Source: a virus. From it: DNA of 64,000 nt. Under the pieces are notes generated by a model. The model had not been told where the DNA came from and ran no database searches. It was given only the letters and a program-made list of their open reading frames with translations. A program made the translations under genes and the position numbers. Positions within the stretch are counted from its first letter, which is position 1. Each line of letters begins with the position of its first letter. Positions 1,654 to 51,000 of this stretch are shown here, in pieces. The stretch is from the IMG/VR virus record IMGVR_UViG_3300045116_000679, positions 3,109-67,108 of that record; one strand, 5' to 3'.

Positions 1654-3957
1654 TCACTCCGCGGCGAACAGAGGCATGTCGGCCGCAGGCCGGGCCCGGC
1701 GCTCGCGTAGCGCGTCCTCCCGGTAGTTCGCGGCGACCAAGATCTCGGCCATGCCGGGGCAGACCGAATTCCCGCACATGCGGCCCTGCTGTTCGAGCGT
1801 TAGGGGGATGATCGTCCCGTCCTCCAGCTCGCCGCGATCGATCGTGTAGTTCGGCCGGAAACCCTGGGCGTTGAACCGCTCGCGCGGGGTCAGCATCCGC
1901 ATGCCGATGTCGACGATGGCATAGGGCTCGCCCTGGATCGTCACCGTCACGACGCCGTGCCGGGGCTTCGCGGTGATCGTGTGCAGCGGGTCGGTGACCG
2001 GCTGTGATGGCAGGCCCTCCCCGTAATACTTCGCCAGGAAGGCGTAGACCGCGGCGGCGTGGTTCCCGCCTCCGGTGGCGGTCGGCGCGGGTGCGTCGAT
2101 CGGCGCATCCCGCCGGTCCGAGCCGCGCAGGTTGAGCATATGGGCGGCGACGACGCCCTGCTGGCAGCCCTTCTCCGTGATGGTCGAGACGGGCTCCTCG
2201 GCCGACTTCGCCGGCTGGCCCGGGTGCGACCCGGCGGTGTGCTGCGCGACGAAGGCGGCTACGACGGTCTGCTGTCCGCCCGAGGCGGTGACCGTCCGGA
2301 CCGGCTCCCGGACGTCCGAGCCCGGCTTGATCCCCTCGCCCCGCTCGCTGTTGTGCTGCGCCAGGAAGGCGGCGACGACCGCGGCCTTGCCGGCACCGCC
2401 GGCCGTGATCGTGCCGACCGGCTCATCCGCGGCCGAGCCGATCGACTGACCGAACTGCCGGGACAGGTGGACCGCCGCAAGGCTCCCCTCGTTCCCGGTA
2501 GGCACGATGACCGGCGCCGGCTCGTCCAGGGCGCGGGTCCGCGGCTCCTGGCCGGGGCGCTCGCCGTAGCGGGGGACGAGGAAGGGCGTCACCAAGTGCC
2601 CGGGGACGTTGTCGCCCGCGGTGATCGTCGCGGTCGGCTCCTCGACGCCGCGGACACGCGGCTCGTGGCCCGCTTTCTCCTGAAAGCGCGGCGCCAGGAA
2701 CGGCGCGACCACCGCGATCCCGCCCGCCGTCGCGATCGTGCTGACGGGCTCCTCCGCGCCGTGAACGCCCTTGCGCGCCGGGTCGCCGGAGGTCTGGTCG
2801 ACGCGGATCAGATGCGGGGCAACGATCCCGAGCGGCGCCGCGCCGACCCCGCGGGTTTCGCTCGCGTGCGCCGTTACCGTCGCCAGCGGCTGCTCTATCG
2901 GGTGCCCGGTGGCGCCGCGGTTGAACTTGGTCACGAAGGGCGCGACGACCGTGTTGTGGTCCTTCGGGCTGGCCGTGATCGTATGCAGCGGCGCCTCGAT
3001 ATCCCGGCTCGCGCCGCCCTGCTGAGCGTAGCTGACGAAGGGCGTGACCAAGGCTTCGCCACGGCCGCCGGTGAAGGTCGGGGCCGGCTCCTCGGCGCTA
3101 TGCGCGCGACCGCCCGTGCCGCCCCCGTGGTTGACCTGCACGAGGAAGGGCTTCGCCGCGTTGACGACGTAGCGCATCGTCCCCTTGGCGATCCGGGCCA
3201 TCGTGGCGTCCGCGAGCGGCCGGTTGGCGCGGATCCCGTGCTTCACCTTGATCTCGGCCGAGGTCTCGAAGATCGATGGGCAGGGCAGCGACCAGTCGAT
3301 GATCTCGGCCGCCGTGCGCCAGGGCTTCAGCCGCCCGGACCGGACCGCCTCGGACTTCGGGTCGCCGTGGGTCGGCTCCGGCCAGACGATCGGGCGGCCG
3401 TCCCGCCGCGCGATCCAGTAGAGGCGCTTGCGGATCGTGGGCACGCCGAAGTCGCAGGCGCGCAGCTCGCGGTGCTCGACCTTGTAGCCGAGCGCCTCCC
3501 AGGCGCCGACGTACTGCCGGAACGTGGCGCCGCGCTGTAGCGGGCAGGGGCGGCCGTCCTCAAGGAGCGGTCCCCAATCCGCGAACTCCTCGACGTTCTC
3601 CAGGAAGACCACTTTGGGCCGCTGCCAGCGCGGCAGGCGCTTGACCCAGCCGAGGACGGTCCAGGCGAGCCCGCGGATGTGCTTCTCGCGCGGCTTGCCG
3701 CCCTTGGCCTTGGAGTGGTGCTTGCAGTCGGGGCTCATCCAGAGCATCCCGATCGGGCGATCGCCGCACATCGCGCGAGCGTCGACCGTGACGACGTCCT
3801 CCTCGATGTGGTGCGTGTCCGGATGGTTGATCCGGTGCATCGCGAGCGCGATCGCGTCGTGATTCACTGCGATATCGGGATCCCGACCGAGCGCGGCCCG
3901 GATGCCCTCGGAAGCGCCGCCGCCGCCCGCGAAGGAGTCGATCACGAGAGGCCGCAT
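1654..3957 (-). CDS. DNA cytosine-5 methyltransferase with long repeat insertion
   Basis: FAGGGG (motif I), SPDCKHHS (PC-like motif IV), LENVEEF (VI), RKRLY (VIII), RMLTPRE...GNSVCP (IX-X). Confidence 0.92.
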   Translation of the reverse strand: MRPLVIDSFAGGGGASEGIRAALGRDPDIAVNHDAIALAMHRINHPDTHHIEEDVVTVDARAMCGDRPIGMLWMSPDCKHHSKAKGGKPREKHIRGLAWTVLGWVKRLPRWQRPKVVFLENVEEFADWGPLLEDGRPCPLQRGATFRQYVGAWEALGYKVEHRELRACDFGVPTIRKRLYWIARRDGRPIVWPEPTHGDPKSEAVRSGRLKPWRTAAEIIDWSLPCPSIFETSAEIKVKHGIRANRPLADATMARIAKGTMRYVVNAAKPFLVQVNHGGGTGGRAHSAEEPAPTFTGGRGEALVTPFVSYAQQGGASRDIEAPLHTITASPKDHNTVVAPFVTKFNRGATGHPIEQPLATVTAHASETRGVGAAPLGIVAPHLIRVDQTSGDPARKGVHGAEEPVSTIATAGGIAVVAPFLAPRFQEKAGHEPRVRGVEEPTATITAGDNVPGHLVTPFLVPRYGERPGQEPRTRALDEPAPVIVPTGNEGSLAAVHLSRQFGQSIGSAADEPVGTITAGGAGKAAVVAAFLAQHNSERGEGIKPGSDVREPVRTVTASGGQQTVVAAFVAQHTAGSHPGQPAKSAEEPVSTITEKGCQQGVVAAHMLNLRGSDRRDAPIDAPAPTATGGGNHAAAVYAFLAKYYGEGLPSQPVTDPLHTITAKPRHGVVTVTIQGEPYAIVDIGMRMLTPRERFNAQGFRPNYTIDRGELEDGTIIPLTLEQQGRMCGNSVCPGMAEILVAANYREDALRERRARPAADMPLFAAE

Positions 3958-43387: not shown

Positions 43388-43585
43388 ATGTATCCGAGCG
43401 AGGCGGCGCCAAGGCTTCTCGTCCGTCTTCCCCCTGACCTGAAAGACTTCGTTGTGAGCGAAGCGCAGCGTAACGGCTCATCGCAGAACAGTGAGGTCAT
43501 TCGCGCCGTCAGGGAGCGGATGGAGCGCCAGAGGCTCCAAACGAAAGCGGCCCCGGAAGGTGCTGGAACACCCGCCGAGGCCTGA
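43388..43585 (+). CDS. Arc-family RHH repressor
   Basis: LLVRLPPDLKDFVVSEAQRNGSSQNSEVIRAV; AGGAG RBS. Confidence 0.88.
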   Translation: MYPSEAAPRLLVRLPPDLKDFVVSEAQRNGSSQNSEVIRAVRERMERQRLQTKAAPEGAGTPAEA

Positions 43586-43614
43586 CAGCCACCCCAACCC
43601 GCTGAGGAAGAAAG

Positions 43615-43968
43615 ATGGCCTGCACCAAGTCTACCACAGGTCCCGTGACCCGCGCCATCCAGGCGATGCGCAACGATACCCCCACCCTCATCGTCCCGCG
43701 CCGTGGGTTCATCGCGAGAGCGCTCGGCTTCACGGCCGCAGGCGCCGCGCTGAGCGTGCCGGTGCTGGCGGTCGAGACGCCGGCCGACCGCATCGCCTAC
43801 CACCGCGCCGAACTCGAGAAGGCATTCCGCGAGTACTACGCCAGCGCACCAGTGATCGTGCGGAGCAACGACCTCACGCGCGAGTACTTGCTGGAGCGTC
43901 AGCCGACCAGCGTGGCGTGCCTGATGTTCATGGCGGGGCCGGTCGAGGTTCAGGGAGGTCGGGCATGA
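43615..43968 (+). CDS. Small protein with twin-arginine-like leader
   Basis: PRRGFIARALGFTAAGAALSVPVLA. Confidence 0.6.
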   Translation: MACTKSTTGPVTRAIQAMRNDTPTLIVPRRGFIARALGFTAAGAALSVPVLAVETPADRIAYHRAELEKAFREYYASAPVIVRSNDLTREYLLERQPTSVACLMFMAGPVEVQGGRA

Positions 43969-44528
43969 CTGAACTCGTTACCGTTCCCTTCCATGGCGAC
44001 ACGCTGTTTTGCGCTCGCGAGGAGCGGCGGATCGGCGTCGCAATCAAGCCCATCTCGGACCGACTCGGCCTCTCGTGGTCGGGGCAGTACGAGCGCCTCA
44101 ACCGCGATCCGATCCTCGCCGAGGGTATTCGCGTAACACGAATGCCTTCGGTGGGCGGCGAGCAGGAGACCGTGACCCTCGACCTTCCGCTTCTGCCCGG
44201 GTGGCTGTTCGGGGTCAGCGTGAAGCGGGTCAGGGCCGAGTGCCGCGAGGCGGTGCTCCTCTACCAGCGCCGCTGCCACGACGTGCTCCATCGGCACTTC
44301 TTCGGCGGCGAGGAAGGGAGGGCCGTCGTGGCCACTGCTCCACACCCTGCCCATGAGGAGCCGATGCGGGTTCGCCGCCAACTCGTGACCGAGGCTCGCC
44401 AGACCTTCGGGGTTCGGGCGGCGGGCAGTCTGTGGTTTGCTCTCGGCTTGCCGGTCGTCCCCGAGATGCACGAGCCGCCCCGGCAGGGCGACTTCGGATT
44501 TACCTACACGGCGCGGCCGCTGCCGTAG
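43965..44528 (+). CDS. Antirepressor, P22 Ant N-terminal domain
   Basis: VPFHGDTL...VAIKPISDRLGLSWSGQYERL...LPGWLFGV. Confidence 0.88.
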   Translation: MTELVTVPFHGDTLFCAREERRIGVAIKPISDRLGLSWSGQYERLNRDPILAEGIRVTRMPSVGGEQETVTLDLPLLPGWLFGVSVKRVRAECREAVLLYQRRCHDVLHRHFFGGEEGRAVVATAPHPAHEEPMRVRRQLVTEARQTFGVRAAGSLWFALGLPVVPEMHEPPRQGDFGFTYTARPLP

Positions 44529-44670
44529 CGCCATCCACCACCACACCAGAGATCCCGCCGTTCCAGGGCGGGCAGAGCGCGACGTTTCAGGGCTTCAGCG
44601 GCCCCGGCGTCGCATGTGCGACCCCTGACGCGCTCCGGGCCTGGAAGGCCGGGCGCCGCTGGAGACCATC

Positions 44671-45426
44671 ATGGCAAAGAAGACCGAAGACACTGCCGAG
44701 ATCAGCATCGTTCCCCTGCGCCGCGGCTCGGTTCGGCTGCGGATCATCGGACAGACGCCGTTGTTCCAGAACAGAATGGCGAACAAAGCCAAGCAGCAGC
44801 TGCTGGTCGGCGGCCAGAGAAAGAGCAAGGCCGATCGCGCTCAGATCAAGCACAACCCGCTGCAGGAGTACCGCGACAGCGCCGAGATCCTGCCGGCCGG
44901 ACCGACCGCTCTTGGTCTGCGTGTCGTCGCGGTGAAGGCGGCCATGGCGACGGCCGCCCTGGAGACGCCCGGGCTCACGAAAACGTCGGCACAGCGGCTG
45001 ATCTTCATGCCGGGCGATCATGTTCCTCTCTACGGTACGCCGCAGCTTCGTATGGATGTGGTCCGGTCTGCCGACATCAATAGAACGCCAGACGTGCGCA
45101 CCCGGTGCTTCCTTCCGAAATGGGGCGCAGAAGTTGAGGTGCAGTTCATCGTCCCGCAGCTCTCGGTAATTTCTGTTGTGTCGCTCCTCTGCAACGCCGG
45201 CGTTCTGGTCGGGGTGGGCGATTATAGACAAGAGAAAGGCAAGGGCGCCTTCGGCAGCTTCCGAGTGCTCGGCGAGGGCGAAGACGATGACGAGTGGGAC
45301 GACCTCGTTGCGAACCACGGGCGTGCCGCCCAGGAAGCCGCGCTCGCTGACCCAGCTTATGCGGACACCGACACTCGTGACCTGATGGAGTTCTTCCACG
45401 CCGAGACCAAGCGGAGGGCTGCCTGA
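44671..45426 (+). CDS. RAMP/Cas7-like protein (putative RNA-guided effector)
   Basis: N-terminal beta strand LRIIGQTPL; C-terminal Gly-rich loop GVLVGVGDYRQEKGKGAFGSFRV typical of RAMP folds; next to a 5-nt-periodic array. Confidence 0.65.
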   Translation: MAKKTEDTAEISIVPLRRGSVRLRIIGQTPLFQNRMANKAKQQLLVGGQRKSKADRAQIKHNPLQEYRDSAEILPAGPTALGLRVVAVKAAMATAALETPGLTKTSAQRLIFMPGDHVPLYGTPQLRMDVVRSADINRTPDVRTRCFLPKWGAEVEVQFIVPQLSVISVVSLLCNAGVLVGVGDYRQEKGKGAFGSFRVLGEGEDDDEWDDLVANHGRAAQEAALADPAYADTDTRDLMEFFHAETKRRAA

Positions 45427-45932
45427 TGGCCAAGTTCACCAAGGCGCTCCGCCAGCAGATCGTCCAGGAGTTTGCGACCCGTCACAACGGCCGCTTCAAC
45501 CCGGAAAGGTTCGTGGAGGAGGTGCGCCGGAAGGGCGCGAGCCATCCGGCCTACGAGTGGTTCGAGTGGGACCGGAACCGTGCGGCCCTGCAATGGCAGA
45601 TCGAGCAGGCGCGCGAGTTCGCTCGCGACCTGCGGATCGTTTTTACAGTCGAGGAGGTCGGGCGCCGCAAGCCGATCACGGTCAACACGGCCATGCCGAT
45701 GGTGCTGTCGCCCGTGAACGAGCGGAAGGCCGGCGGTGGGTACTATCTGGTCGATCCGGCCGATCCAGCGCACCTCGCCGAGCACTGTCGGCAGGCAGCC
45801 ACCGCTCTGCGGGCGTGGCTCGGCCGGTACGAGGCGGCGGTCCGCCACTCCGGCACGACGCCAGAGGCGATCAACAGGATGGTGACGGCGCTTGAGGCCG
45901 TGGCCCCACCCGCGGAGCCGGAAGCGGCATGA
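45426..45932 (+). CDS. Partner protein of RAMP-like gene, unknown function
   Basis: TGATG coupling; HPAYEWFEWD...QIEQAR motif. Confidence 0.75.
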   Translation: MAKFTKALRQQIVQEFATRHNGRFNPERFVEEVRRKGASHPAYEWFEWDRNRAALQWQIEQAREFARDLRIVFTVEEVGRRKPITVNTAMPMVLSPVNERKAGGGYYLVDPADPAHLAEHCRQAATALRAWLGRYEAAVRHSGTTPEAINRMVTALEAVAPPAEPEAA

Positions 45933-45986
45933 ACGAGACGGGCGAGCCGGCTCTTGCCTTGCCCGGCTCGGCGGATGGCGCGGAAA

Positions 45987-46354
45987 GGCAGGCATGGCAC
46001 GGCAAGGACTGACGCGGCTAGGGCAGTTCTGGAGCGGCGAGACGCGGCAGGCGAGGCGCGGACTGGCCGGGAGTGTTAAGGCAAGGCCTGGCCAGGCGAG
46101 GCGCTTCTCGGCAGGCGAGGCTGGGAGTGACCAGCCGGGGTCAGGTGTGGCCAGACTAGGCAGGTAAGTTGCGTAGCGCTGAGCCGGTTGCCCAACCGGC
46201 TGGCGGGGATCACGGCAGGGCAGGCGGGGTACGGCCCGACTTGGCGCGGCGAGCATTGGAAGGCATCGTCAGGCAAGCCTGGCGCGAACAGGCATGGAGA
46301 GGCCAGGTGCGGCGGGGCCAGTAATGGCGTGGCCGGGCGAGTCCAGGCAGGCAA
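45987..46354 (+). repeat. Array of GG(C/T)-NN pentamers in blocks delimited by GGCA (candidate guide-RNA array)
   Basis: e.g. ggca|ggcat ggcac ggcaa ggact gacgc ggcta gggca gttct ggagc ggcga gacgc|ggca|ggcga ggcgc ggact ggccg ggagt... Confidence 0.8.
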
Positions 46355-46384
46355 AGGAAGAGGCGGTGCGACCCGCCTCTTCCT
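46355..46384 (+). terminator. Terminator-like hairpin closing the array
   Basis: AGGAAGAGGCGG-tgcgac-CCGCCTCTTCCT perfect 12-bp stem between convergent units. Confidence 0.75.
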
Positions 46385-46397
46385 CCCTTGTGCTTCG

Positions 46398-46853
46398 CTA
46401 GGCTTGGCACGCGCTGATCATCTTGTCATACAACCTATTCGCTCCAGCCATATTAATATCTTCATTTATGATGCCGCCAACAAAAGTTAGCGTCTGGAAT
46501 CGAAGTCGCCTAGCAGTTAGTGCTGCTGAAAACTCTTGACCGGTAAACTCTAATATTCCTGACCGTTCTTCTGCGCGCGATGGAAGCCTCATTCCGCTTG
46601 AGGCGGCATCATCAATCCTATATTCGTATCCCTTTAGTCCACCACGATTTGTGTAAATGATATATAGGGCACCTCTCGATATCTGAACGGTGGTATTGCC
46701 TTTGGGGGTGAGAACACAGGTTGTTTTGTCCGAGAAACTGTCAACGGTTCTTCTCATCTCCCAAGCGCCGTCCCGCGCCACTACAGGCCCTAGTCCCTGT
46801 GCTTGTGCGGAAGCGCTGATCACAGTCGCCGCGACCACCAAAGCCAATCTCAT
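46398..46853 (-). CDS. Secreted low-GC moron protein
   Basis: MRLALVVAATVISASAQA-Q signal peptide; AT-rich; opposite strand. Confidence 0.72.
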   Translation of the reverse strand: MRLALVVAATVISASAQAQGLGPVVARDGAWEMRRTVDSFSDKTTCVLTPKGNTTVQISRGALYIIYTNRGGLKGYEYRIDDAASSGMRLPSRAEERSGILEFTGQEFSAALTARRLRFQTLTFVGGIINEDINMAGANRLYDKMISACQA

Positions 46854-47001
46854 CAACCCCTCCCTGACTCCCGCCCCATCTGGCGCGCGCAGGTCTGAGG
46901 GCAACACCAAGGCCAAGCACACGGAGAGGGTCGACGAGGGCGCATCGGAGGGCGTCGCAAACCCAACCCGGCTTGCGTATATTGTGCCACGGAGGCGAAC
47001 C

Positions 47002-47586
47002 ATGGGCTTTGCGGCGCTGGCCGAGACACTGGATCGATATGCGGATCTGCCAGACGTGTCGTCCCTCGCGCCGGCGTTTCGCGACAAGGCGGATCTGGAC
47101 GGTATCGCTCGGGACGTCCGCAGAGTTGATCAAGCCATGCTGGCGCTGCGCCTCCAGTTCGGTAATTATGAAGCCGCACTAAATAGTATAATTGCAAATG
47201 AATTCGATCATCTGAGCTACGAAGAAGCAAAAAAATTCGTCGATAGTATTGAGGATCTTAATCGTTCTCGCAAAGAATGGCGCGAGCGAATGGATGCTAG
47301 CTTCAATGCGGAAATGACGAGTGTTATGCCGCTTGTTGAGGCCATCCCAAAGTACGCGCGAAAGCAAATCCGTAAACATCTCAAAATCATGGCGGACGCT
47401 AGAACGAGAACGGCAACGCGCAGCGTCCAACTAGAGCATACCGTCGCCGGCATCTGTGAGGAGTTGCGGTCGAGATTGGAGGTCAGGGCCGCCGAGAAGG
47501 CTCGGGCCGAAAGAACGAAGCACGACGCTCTCTTCGAGCGCTCCATCGCCCGCTTCCCGGTGATCACGGACTACCTTGCCCGCTGA
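47002..47586 (+). CDS. Putative antitoxin partner of Doc
   Basis: GGAGG RBS; overlaps doc; C-terminal FERSIARFPVITDYLAR resembles Doc-antitoxin tails. Confidence 0.6.
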   Translation: MGFAALAETLDRYADLPDVSSLAPAFRDKADLDGIARDVRRVDQAMLALRLQFGNYEAALNSIIANEFDHLSYEEAKKFVDSIEDLNRSRKEWRERMDASFNAEMTSVMPLVEAIPKYARKQIRKHLKIMADARTRTATRSVQLEHTVAGICEELRSRLEVRAAEKARAERTKHDALFERSIARFPVITDYLAR

Positions 47587-47971
47587 TCCTGTCGAGCCCG
47601 AGTGGTTCACCGCCGACCAGATCGAGCGCCTGAACGAGTTGCTGGTCGCGCAGACCGGCGAGAACCACGTCGTGCTCAGCCGCTCCCTGCTTGAGGGGGC
47701 GGTCGCCCGGCCACAGAACCTCTGGGCCTACGAGGGCGTGACGGATCTGGTGATCCTGGCCGTCCGCCTCCTCGAAGGGATAGGCAAGAACCACTGCTTC
47801 GAGCAGGGCAACAAGCGCACCGCCTTCCACGCCGCCGTCGCCTTCCTCGACCTGAATGGGTCTCCGGTCGATCTGCCGGATACCGAAGCGAATGCGGCCC
47901 TGATCCGAGACCTCATCGTCGGCCAAGTGGACGCATCCCGCGTCGAATCTGTCTTTAAAGCGGCAATCTAA
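47576..47971 (+). CDS. doc: Doc/Fic-family toxin
   Basis: LEGAVARPQN...NHCFEQGNKRTA...FLDLNG. Confidence 0.88.
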   Translation: MPADPVEPEWFTADQIERLNELLVAQTGENHVVLSRSLLEGAVARPQNLWAYEGVTDLVILAVRLLEGIGKNHCFEQGNKRTAFHAAVAFLDLNGSPVDLPDTEANAALIRDLIVGQVDASRVESVFKAAI

Positions 47972-48045
47972 CCGCAAGCTCCTGAACCGAATTCGAGTTC
48001 ATCTGACCCGGCCCAGCGCGTCGGGTCTCCAGTCGTGGAGACATC

Positions 48046-51000
48046 ATGTCTTCAGGTGTTCCTGTAATCGCAGGCGTCGCCGTCGAAGTCGTTGCCGACC
48101 TTTCGACCTTCGACGCCGGCATAGCGCGCGCGCAAGCATCCGCCCGTACCGCGGGCGCGGTGATTGCGGCCGACCTCGGCAAGATCGAGGCAGCGGAGCG
48201 GCGTGTCGGGGCGGCATCGGAGGAGGTCGCGCGCGTCGGAAAAGCGGCGGCCAACAGCGCCACCGCGACCGAGCGGCTTGCTAAGGGTCTTGAGGCGGCC
48301 GAGCGGGCAGCCAAGGCGGCAGCGGCAGCTGGCGGTGGCGCCGGGTCGGGCGGCTCTGGTAGCGGCTCTGACCGTGGCAAGCGCGCGGCCGAGGAGGCCG
48401 CTGCCGCGAACGAGAACCTGCGCAAGACCACGCGCCTCGCCGCGCACGAGGTCTCGAACCTGTCTGCCCAGCTCGCAGACATCACTGTGCAGTTGGCTGG
48501 CGGCCAGAGTCCATTTCTTGTTTTGCTTCAACAAGGATCACAGATTGCGCCAATACTTGGAAGTAGAGGCGTTGCAGGTTCTATTGCGGCAATCGGTCAG
48601 ACGATCTCAAGCATCGTCTCACCCACCGTCGCGATCTTCAGCACCCTGACAGCCGCCGTGATCTACGGATACAGTGCTTGGTCGAGGTATGACGACGCGC
48701 AACGTTCGGCGCTGACGACGCTCCAAGGTCTAGGCCGCAATCTCGGCATGACTGTGAGCCAGTTCGAAGACCTAGCGCGCTCGGCCGCTGCGGCTGGCAA
48801 CATGTCCACGCGGCAAGCCGGTGACCTTGCAACAGCCCTCGCGCGAACGGGCCGCATTGGACCTGAAAACATTCGTCGCATCATTGAAGTGTCGAAGGAT
48901 CTTGCAGCGACGCTCGGCACTGATCTCGACAGCATCAAGGACAAGCTGGGCACCACGTTTGGCAGCGCTGAAGGTATCGACAACCTGAACCGGCAGCTTC
49001 GATTCCTCGACGCGAACACGTCGGACGTGATCGACAGCCTGTTCCGGCAAGGTCGGGCGCAGGACGCGATCCGCTTGGCTCTCGAAAAGCTCCCAAGCTC
49101 CCTCGCACGGTACGAGCAAAGTCAGTCTGCCGTCGCGCGCGGGTGGGAAGCGGTCAAAACTGCCGTGTCTGAAGCTGATCTCGCGGTTGGTCGCTTCATC
49201 GACCGCATCGTTCGCGGGCCGTCGGCGGCCGATCGGCTCAGAGAGCTGGAGGGGCGGGTCAAGGCGCTGCGCGAGGCGGCAAGCCCGGACCTGACCGAAG
49301 CCGGGGCGATGACACGGACGATCCTCGCGACGAGGCCGATACCCTCCACGCCTTCCACGCAGCCTAGCCGCAACCAGCAATTGGAGAAGGCTGAATCTGA
49401 TCTGTTCGACCAACGCGAACAGATGCGCGCGAACATGCGTCTTGAGATGGAGCGGGCGGCTGATCGCAAGCGACAGGACGAGATCAACAGGACCACCCAG
49501 TCTCTACGCGACGAAATCAAGGCTCTGATGCCGGGTACGCAGCAGTGGCGCGAGCGCAAAGATGCACTGGAACTGTTCGAACGCGCCGCTCAATCATCTG
49601 ACGCCGAAATGCGCAAGCAGGCTCTGGGCGTCAAAGGCTTTGCGGAAGCTCAGGATATTCTTCAGCAAGCCCAAAAGAGTGCGACCAACGCGCAAGGTGA
49701 GGCGCTGACGCAGGCTGAGAAGGCCGCTCGCCAGCGCGCGATCGATCTCGCTGACGCCAGAGCGGTCACTGATGCCGATCGCGCCCGGGTGGCTCGAATG
49801 CGTCAGGAGCAGCAACAGATCGGGCAGCTTGCCACGGGCGCTCAAGCGAGGGAGGACGCCGAGCACGCGGCGAGAATGGAGCTGGAAAGGTCCGAGGCGC
49901 AGGTGCGCGCTATGATTCGGGCCCAGCAGGCCGAAGGACAGGAGCTTCAGGCCCGAATCAATCTCCTTGGGCAAAGCAGTGAAGCGCAGGCCGTAGCCGC
50001 AGCGCGTCAGCGCGCGATCAACGATCTAACATTGCAAGGCAAAGACACAACATCTGCTCTCTCTCAGGAGTACATTGGTCTTATAGAGGCAAATGCTCGA
50101 CTGAGCCTTTCATATGAGAAAGCGCGGGAAGCTCAACAGCGACTTGTCGAAGGCCAGCGCCAGATCGGGCAGATGTTCTCATCGTTCCTGAACGACATTC
50201 TGTCGGGGACCGGCCGCCTCTCGGACGCCTTCGCCAACATCGGACGATCCATCACGAGCAGCGGCCTTCAGGCAATCCTGACCGGTGAGGGCGGGATGGC
50301 GACGCTGCTCGGCACCGCGCCCACCGAACGCGGTCAGCTCGGCGGTCTACTAGGCGGCAACCTCGGCATCTTCAGCGGGACCATCAAGGATGCCGTCCGC
50401 GAGGGCACGACGCTCGGCACGAAGCCGCTGAGCGAGTCCTTCGAGTTTCTGCGCGACACGCCCCTCGCCGGGTTCACGGGTCGCCAAGCGCTCGGCATCG
50501 GCGGCGGCGCGCTGGCCATTGCGAGCGCGTACGGCACCGGCACCAACGCCAGCAGCCGCATGGGCGCGCTCCTCTCGGGGGGCGTCAGCGGCGCGCTCGG
50601 CGGTGCCCTGATGGGCGCGCAGGCGGCTTCCATCGGCGGCCCGGTGGGCGCTGTCGCAGGCGGTGTGATCGGCGCGGCCCTGTCCCTCTTCGGCTTCAAC
50701 GACGCCGAAAAGCAGCGCATCAAAGAAGCAAAGAAGCAGGCCGAAGAAGCATATCAGGCAGCTAAATCCCAGATCGACGCCCTACGCGCCCAGTTCCGTG
50801 GCGAAATACAGGGCGCTCTCGGCCAGTCTATCTCACAGGCTAACCAGCAAGCTTACCAAGCAATGCAGGTCGCAGCGAAGGCTGGGCGTGAGGCCGAGGC
50901 GAATGCGATCTACCAGGATTTCCAATCCTTCACCGGCCGCGTCAAGCGCGAGTTCGCGGCGGCGTTCGAGGGCAACCTGTCGGCGCTCTCGGCCGGGCTC

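Follow-up and report, generated by a model that had tools for sequence, protein, structure and literature searches.

VIPR (Viral Interference Programmable Repeat) systems, the closest described relatives of the locus considered here, are phage-borne and combine a RAMP protein, Vipr, and an accessory gene, vap, with guide RNAs (vrRNAs) of 9-16 YNNGG repeats in which the NN dinucleotides are hypervariable (10.64898/2026.04.26.720920). Vipr has an RRM core, a glycine-rich loop and a thumb, and the adjacent array, on the vipr strand, counts at least 4 tandem units. According to the same preprint, the vrRNAs bind double-stranded DNA by a '1 nt skip rule' (NNx), the skipped bases fall 'overwhelmingly' at wobble positions, and the targets are competing phages and satellites; the survey reported there encompasses 664 VIPR loci, types I-VII and the accessory genes vap1-6. 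The resistance of wobble-skipping guides to escape is the subject of a second report (10.64898/2026.10.15.759431), and 99 period-5 clusters have been recovered from intergenic DNA (10.64898/2026.10.21.760802). VIPR is a newly described, RNA-guided mode of DNA reading, from which, as proposed by its authors, the backbone proteins of CRISPR descend. Here we describe such a locus in a 64,000-nucleotide stretch of virus DNA (positions 3,109 to 67,108 of the IMG/VR record IMGVR_UViG_3300045116_000679, a 67-kb virus contig; hereafter, the window). The locus, which comprises a vipr gene, an accessory gene and a staggered array of about five guides ending in a hairpin, is very probably a VIPR of a siphovirus-type phage or prophage, which by homology should work in the same way as the SUSP1 and P. 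fulva systems.

The first gene of the locus encodes a Vipr protein with a RAMP fold (P0001). The profile of 106 members of the P0001 family matches the PDB chain 36pp_D ('SUSP1 Vipr protein') with an E-value of 2.4e-8, and the match falls over the G-loop, AGxxxGVGD[YFW]R. Residues D184, Y185, R186 and R145 of P0001 align to D177, W178, R179 and R138, which have been named as the residues that hold G1, G2 and Y3 in Vipr (10.64898/2026.04.26.720927), and all four are invariant or nearly so among the 106 family members. The AlphaFold2 (AF2) model of P0001 (predicted local distance difference test score, pLDDT, 96.1; predicted template modelling score, pTM, 0.89) yields 36 PDB matches at E<=1e-3 in a Foldseek search, the best being 6xn3_F (E 3.5e-5), and the matches listed are type III and type VII CRISPR effector complexes (Csm and relatives; Csm3/Cas7 subunits). 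The protein belongs to phrog_4652, the function of which is not known in PHROG, and no Pfam family was detected for it in a Pfam scan; the family is large, with 2,030 clusters at 50% identity matching P0001 at E<=1e-3. By homology with the characterized proteins, P0001 should assemble into a polymer along the guide RNAs, on their GGY units.

The array begins 59 nt past the end of the accessory gene and accounts for the strongest period-5 signal of the window (45987-46350; period-5 spectral power in 100-nt segments). In the scan of the entire 64 kb, 24 of the 25 top segments fall within 45921-46331, and the power peaks at 5.9 (window median, 0.61; 99.9th percentile, 4.5). All of the array blocks have little power at period 3 (0.2-0.9 vs 2.8-5.3 at period 5). 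The layout is that of a VIPR array, with GGY+NN pentamers arranged in five blocks of 8-13 units (45991-46345, vipr strand) and a GGCAG unit between blocks (Table 1). Because the motif GGCAGG stands at six boundary positions (45987, 46046, 46110, 46159, 46214 and 46346), the terminal GGCAG of each block shares its last G with the first G of the next block. Accordingly, each guide shares one nucleotide with the next, and neither a tail nor a ribozyme detectable with Rfam separates them, which is the defining feature of the staggered form. All six GGCAG boundaries are intact; within the blocks, 32 of the 53 units have a canonical GGY and 52 have G at position 1, and the stretch 46253-46280 is out of pentamer phase. 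The first-pass annotation of this DNA, made from the letters alone, had placed an array here and quoted NN strings for four blocks; cutting these blocks into pentamers returns exactly the same strings (11, 12, 9 and 13 NN). The fifth block, B4 (46218-46257), the GGCAGG punctuation and the 12-bp hairpin were absent from that annotation. The hairpin appears in both the minimum free energy (MFE) and the centroid folds and, with the CCCTTGTGCTT that follows it, likely marks the transcription end of the vipr-vap-array unit; it was missed by a consensus terminator scan because the T-run is too weak. The 50-nt spacer at 46164-46213 divides the array in two, and its inverted repeat is paired in the predicted fold; the spacer may be a processing signal, an internal terminator or a leftover.

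Table 1. Features of the VIPR locus and of the surrounding island (positions in the window; NN, variable dinucleotide of a unit)
Feature	Position	Strand	Evidence or remark
Ant-like gene (PF10547)	43491-44528	+	
vipr (P0001, 251 aa)	44671..45426	+	profile, fold and motif evidence
Accessory gene in the position of a vap gene (P0002, 168 aa)	45426..45932	+	one-base overlap of its start with the vipr stop (TGATG)
First GGCAG boundary unit, whose final G opens guide 1	45987..45991	+	GGCAGG positions
Putative vrRNA 1 (B1): 11 NN (AT AC AA CT GC TA CA CT GC GA GC) and terminal GGCAG	45991..46050	+	pentamer parse; canonical GGY 5/11
Putative vrRNA 2 (B2): 12 NN and terminal GGCAG	46050..46114	+	canonical GGY 8/12
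Putative vrRNA 3 (B3): 9 NN and terminal GGCAG	46114..46163	+	canonical GGY 5/9
Non-repeat spacer, 50 nt, with short inverted repeat GCCGGTTG..CAACCGGC	46164..46213	+	sequence; predicted fold
GGCAG boundary, then degenerate block B4 (8 NN; block 46218-46257)	46214..46257	+	canonical GGY 5/8
Putative vrRNA 5 (B5): 13 NN and terminal GGCAG	46281..46350	+	only guide of the window with a target-like match
GC-rich hairpin, 12 bp, then CCCTTGTGCTT	46355..46384	+	MFE and centroid folds
ORF (open reading frame) of 229 aa	46398-47087	-	local GC 0.59-0.60 vs ~0.70
Doc-like toxin gene (phrog_577, E 1.2e-22)	47576-47971	+	just upstream of the tape-measure gene
Tape-measure protein, 1,717 aa	48046-53199	+	EF-hand calcium-binding motif near residues 1412-1469 (PF13202, PF13499 and others)

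Searches with P0001 and P0002 against IMG/VR, metagenomes and bacterial genomes gathered 135 related records, which reduce to a non-redundant set of 90 (0.72 Mb; individual loci are cited below by L numbers), including sequences from Microvirga, Methylobacterium, Bradyrhizobium, Hoeflea, Thalassobaculum and actinobacterial metagenome-assembled genomes (MAGs). The Vipr proteins of these loci are mostly 40-89% identical to that of the window (a few partial matches are lower). GGYNN runs in the 90 loci are found almost exclusively on the vipr strand (323 vs 2 on the opposite strand), with GGCAG as the last unit in 166 of the 323, and among the guides of at least 8 NN in these relatives, 206 of 208 are unique. 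Per-position entropies over 2,237 units are 0.18, 0.60 and 1.14 bits for G, G and Y vs 1.94 and 2.00 bits for the two N positions; thus, across the related loci, GGY is conserved whereas NN is hypervariable and near-random.

The resemblance to the published systems is closest for the staggered VIPR arrays outlined in the legend of fig. S18 of 10.64898/2026.04.26.720920, which have the same phage-borne vipr and small accessory gene and the same GGY/NN pentamers on the vipr strand, in guides of ~9-13 units with a one-base overlap and hypervariable NN; the blocks of the window, with 8-13 units, are within or just under the published range of 9-16. Set against these published staggered systems, the accessory protein encoded here is without a recognisable DNA-binding or nuclease fold. 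The experimentally studied type II VIPR of Escherichia phage SUSP1 and of the P. fulva prophage (PDB 36pp) share with the locus the Vipr G-loop, the thumb arginine and the GGY/NN code, and carry guides against rival phages including rival vipr genes, for which the counterpart here is the match of a guide from a related locus, L007, to rival vipr genes (see below). They differ in the length of Vipr (202 aa for the SUSP1 chain vs 251 aa) and in the form of the guides: the SUSP1 vrRNAs are ~100 nt long and have an invariant 3' tail and a pseudoknot, whereas the guides here are tail-less, with only GGCAG between them, and so represent a compact array form with a candidate processing signal. Class 1 CRISPR-Cas systems (Cas7/Csm3 on crRNA) have in common with VIPR the RAMP fold, the binding of one protomer per repeat unit and a duplex-breaking thumb, but operate with a period of 6 on RNA and 6 on DNA, compared with 5 nt on RNA and 3 nt on DNA in VIPR, and no repeat-spacer array of the Class 1 kind was found here by Tandem Repeats Finder in 44000-48500.

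If the locus functions as the type II systems do, the array would be transcribed together with vipr and vap up to the hairpin, and the transcript would be cut at the GGCAG units into RNAs of ~50-65 nt. One Vipr protomer would then occupy each GGY, forming a helical filament that hides GGY and presents NN, and the NN pairs would bind double-stranded DNA reading NNxNNx..., with every third base skipped, whereby the transcription of a rival mobile element would be silenced. Processing, filament formation, DNA binding and silencing are all inferred from the papers on type II systems. The first-pass annotation had arrived at targets read as NNxNNx with the gap at the wobble base; this is the published VIPR mechanism, and the locus indeed has the corresponding features, namely a homologue of Vipr and, on the same strand, a GGYNN array with hypervariable NN. 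The gapped-code inference is correct but has been in print since April 2026, and the argument on escape resistance since October 2026. Recognition should survive most synonymous substitutions in a target, because the base that is skipped lies at codon position 3. The immunity to synonymous escape is nevertheless incomplete, as arginine codon swaps between CGN and AGR alter NN.

The NN composition of the guides resembles that of codon positions 1-2. Under models of dinucleotide usage, the log2-likelihood of the 53 NN of the window is highest for codon positions 1-2 of the phage (-202.5), followed by the reverse complement of positions 2-3 (-209.5), a uniform distribution (-212.0), all phage dinucleotides (-218.0) and the other phases (-224.9 to -260.5), so that the position 1-2 model is preferred by 7 to 58 bits over each alternative. 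Across the clade (2,119 NN in 206 guides), the correlation between NN frequencies and usage at codon positions 1-2 is r 0.87 (0.75-0.90 in a bootstrap over 53 loci), compared with -0.24 for positions 2-3, 0.15 for positions 3-1 and 0.03 when positions 1-2 are reverse-complemented. The impression recorded in the first-pass annotation, that the NN read like codon positions 1-2, is borne out by both the window likelihoods and the clade correlation. A maximum-likelihood mixture for the clade has weights of 0.66 for the sense orientation, 0.03 for the antisense orientation and 0.31 for a uniform component. In the published type II VIPR, the described targets lie on both strands, whereas the NN usage of the clade considered here fits the sense strand and scarcely the antisense orientation. 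It is conceivable, if rather unlikely, that nearly every guide of the staggered clade copies codon positions 1-2 of a sense strand and that this strict orientation reflects directional guide making from coding strands or mRNAs (a form of acquisition), or else silencing that operates only via the template strand. Directional guide making, if true, would amount to guide acquisition, which is not described in the portions of the VIPR texts available to us.

The clearest target was found for a guide of a relative, the Microvirga zambiensis prophage L007. The first guide after the vipr gene of this prophage (3277-3326; GA GT AA CG AG GC GC TA TT) matches the end of vipr in related loci, where the encoded peptide is E-V-K-R-R-A-A-stop, with the NN on codon positions 1-2 and variable third bases. 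The match is 17/18 in five loci (L072, L056, L023, L014 and L011), 16/18 in three and 15/18 in nine, and a score of 17 was reached by 2 of 1000 shuffles. The vipr gene of L007 itself ends (3233-3256) in the same peptide but has AGA CGC in place of CGG AGG, which lowers the score to 14/18. A guide carried by a phage can be aimed at a conserved part of a gene family to which one of its own genes belongs, this copy being spared by CGN/AGR arginine swaps, which are among the few synonymous changes visible to the gapped code; because the L007 gene differs in just this way, a swap between six-fold-degenerate codons provides an escape route from a wobble-skipping guide. Solo vrRNAs likewise target the vipr genes of competing phages, and nearly 90% of such guides are reported to be wobble-aligned (10.64898/2026.10.15.759431); unlike these, the L007 guide sits in a complete VIPR locus, right after its own vipr. 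Neither the sense-only codon signature nor the sparing of the own gene through arginine codons is mentioned in the consulted passages of the VIPR preprints; both may be of specialist interest, as may the near-match of a window guide to the accessory gene. This guide, B5, scores 20/26 in codon phase on the sense strand of codons 57-69 of the vap gene of L014 (YQIEQARQFARDL) and 19/26 on the vap gene of the window itself. The segment matched is conserved (YQ[IVL]EQAR.FARDL): a B5 score of 17 or more was obtained for 12 vap loci, in 10 of them at this same codon. The score of 20 was reached by 21 of 2000 shuffles. The B5 match suggests that rival, or own, vap genes are among the targets of this phage.

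Several observations weigh against the interpretation of the locus as a working VIPR. The sequence link to 36pp_D is short, with only 49 residues aligned; the published experiments concern type II systems; and some guides may be weakened because 21 of the 53 units depart from GGY. The B5 match, at 20/26 (77%), is below the cut-off of the published work, which requires identity of at least 80% of the NN bases under the 1-nt skip rule, and its significance (p ~0.01) is marginal once five guides are considered. No target at this cut-off was found for any of the five window guides in a searched space of 0.72 Mb, 146 genomes of one genus and IMG/VR patterns. On the own contig, the best matches of the five guides at skips 0-3 (16/22, 16/24, 14/18, 13/16 and 19/26) are no better than those of shuffles; B1-B4 gave nothing above shuffles on the vipr and vap genes of the relatives; and B5 and B2 had no match with up to three mismatches, real or control, in the 146 genomes, which belong to the genus that harbours the relative L008; the window phage may have another host. 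The exact full B1, B2 and B3 gave no matches in IMG/VR, and the central 9-NN seeds gave 0 (B1), 1 (B5) and 2 (B2) matches, with flanking NN at chance level. In the all-against-all comparison of 196 guides over the 0.72 Mb, matches with a 1-nt skip were overall no more frequent than those of shuffles or those at other skips, and of 156 guides tested in frame, 3 had p<=0.01 (1.6 expected).

The gapped-match enrichment over shuffles that the first-pass annotation proposed as a check was not seen in the all-against-all comparison: the numbers of guides with a best match of at most one mismatch (expected numbers in parentheses) are 2 (0.1) at skip 0, 2 (0.5) at skip 1, 1 (0.8) at skip 2 and 1 (0.7) at skip 3. 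A match of L010 to L013 was not counted because 15/16 matches of 8-NN guides arise by chance at every skip. As to the related check, the gaps fall on third codon positions for the L007 guide (17/18) and for B5 (20/26) but not for the B5 seed match in IMG/VR (L135, 21/26 in total), where none of the long ORFs listed places the skipped base at the wobble; the B2 seed matches total 19/24. Searches of other kinds gave similar results: B5 had neither real nor control matches with up to three mismatches in 3 genomes, matching the guides at the protein level to 391 Vipr and Vap homologues gave nothing above shuffles, and the L007 guide, with at most one mismatch in 301 genomes of one order, had a single match (none in the control), which lies at the end of an unrelated ORF, not in vipr. 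No guide has a self-target on the own contig at skips 0-2, the perfect skip-3 matches being the array itself; this agrees with the earlier inspection by eye and with the published VIPR set, in which no self-targeting was found either (10.64898/2026.04.26.720920).

Among the alternatives, the one that survives best, although we consider it improbable, is a decayed VIPR array, in which the proteins may still work but the drifted guides direct nothing. The limited number of canonical GGY units, the out-of-phase stretch at 46253-46280 and the lack of a target at 80% or more for any window guide are all compatible with decay, as is the canonical score obtained with the same caller, 23/33 in the window vs 1851/2204 (84%) in the relatives. 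Nevertheless, G at position 1 is retained in all units but one and the six GGCAG boundaries remain intact, 7 of the 38 loci with at least 20 units are even looser, and the target searches were small and possibly made in the wrong host.

Considerably less probable is a non-coding sponge RNA that captures a multimeric RNA-binding protein via the GGC triplets, the NN carrying no information. TRAP binds 11 (G/U)AG repeats, and CsrB/RsmZ carry GGA motifs; the blocks of 9-13 evenly spaced triplets would suit such a role, and the array lacks a stable fold of its own (z -1.4, with 7 of 100 shuffles folding equally well). The neighbouring protein, however, is a homologue of Vipr and other RAMPs rather than TRAP or CsrA, the NN follow codon positions 1-2, and the L007 guide lies in phase on a gene at 17/18. 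Furthermore, the Rfam scan produced no match above threshold, only sub-threshold chance matches at E<=10; CsrB, RsmZ and PrrB were not recognized, the best match, PrrB_RsmZ, scoring 16.7 bits (E 1.1; gathering score 44) and covering the hairpin on the minus strand. The TRAP/Csr type of reading was dropped because of the Vipr homology and the codon signal.

The least probable alternative, with hardly any chance of being correct, is a glycine-rich repeat ORF, or else a phased DNA-bending or packaging site: frames 45892-46167 and 46188-46490 are open, GGCNN repeats rarely creating stop codons, and a hypothetical protein is annotated across the array in some mycobacteriophage records, but the period of 5 is not a multiple of 3 and period-3 power is low in every block, the 4-base step at each GGCAG shifts the reading frame, the array region was not picked by the gene filter based on GC content at third codon positions (GC3), and the strand specificity of the runs (323:2) is not required of a symmetric DNA-level site.

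A structured RNA was rejected on the fold z-score, the shuffles and the sub-threshold Rfam matches, and a coding repeat on periodicity and frame shifts. A CRISPR-Cas array does not fit either: no direct repeats of ~24-48 nt with unique spacers were found by Tandem Repeats Finder in 44000-48500, where a single 7-bp repeat was detected and the sole periodicity is 5 nt.

Returning to the VIPR locus, the accessory gene is a frequent companion of vipr: a homologue of P0002 is located directly downstream of vipr in 48 of the 62 related loci with at least 700 bp of downstream sequence. The P0002 family includes 144 proteins and corresponds to phrog_15946; there is no Pfam match and no PDB sequence match to P0002. 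Its model is of good quality (pLDDT 89.1), but no fold match was found in the PDB, the best Foldseek E-value being 0.63 and the best Z-score in a wide VIA-align search being 4.2, for one helical hairpin only.

The record carries a siphovirus-type structural module on the plus strand (protease, major head protein, tail protein, tail chaperones and tape measure), and vipr, the accessory gene and the array sit in an island between the tail chaperones and the tape measure, in the order Ant-like gene, vipr, accessory gene, array, minus-strand ORF and Doc-like toxin gene. The Ant-like, Doc-like and minus-strand genes are each present only in the window locus among the 90 loci (Doc-like, 1/90). For the minus-strand ORF, neither Pfam nor PHROG gives a match and the 90 related loci contain no homologue; it is probably an independently acquired accessory gene. 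In the Ant-like ORF, the P22_AR_N / Ant-like domain covers only residues 158-328; the Arg/Pro-rich first 158 residues look over-extended, and translation probably begins at the Met near 43965. No Cas-named match was obtained for the selected neighbouring ORFs (nine searched against Pfam and nineteen against PHROG). The sequencing runs on record with window DNA are lake-water metagenomes only, with no RNA run among them.

The locus adds no new principle to VIPR but shows that the Vipr family is large beyond the enterobacterial and Pseudomonas phages studied so far. Its members are found in prophages of Bradyrhizobium, Microvirga and Methylobacterium, in actinobacterial MAGs and in Cheoctovirus mycobacteriophages; Methylobacterium, Mycobacterium and Rhizobiales are not named in the main text or the supplement text of 10.64898/2026.04.26.720920. 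Three MAG contigs (L016, L017 and L018; Microbacteriaceae, Bifidobacterium and unclassified) encode Vipr proteins 42-45% identical to that of the window next to same-strand GGYNN arrays. Because the runs in these contigs end more often in GGCGG or GGCTG than in GGCAG, the boundary unit may differ between clades. A clean staggered array, (GGCNN)11+GGCA, is present in 14 records of Cheoctovirus mycobacteriophages (among them Saal, BobaPhett, Gorge, SwagPigglett, DRBy19, James, Mattes and Philus), between gp50 and gp51 and beside immunity and antirepressor genes; in Saal (NC_023580.1; L006), the array spans 2945-3191 and gp51 spans 3180-3926. The gp51 product (248 aa), annotated as a 'hypothetical protein', is a Vipr homologue with the GVGDWR motif (hhalign probability 99.65%, E 4e-25).

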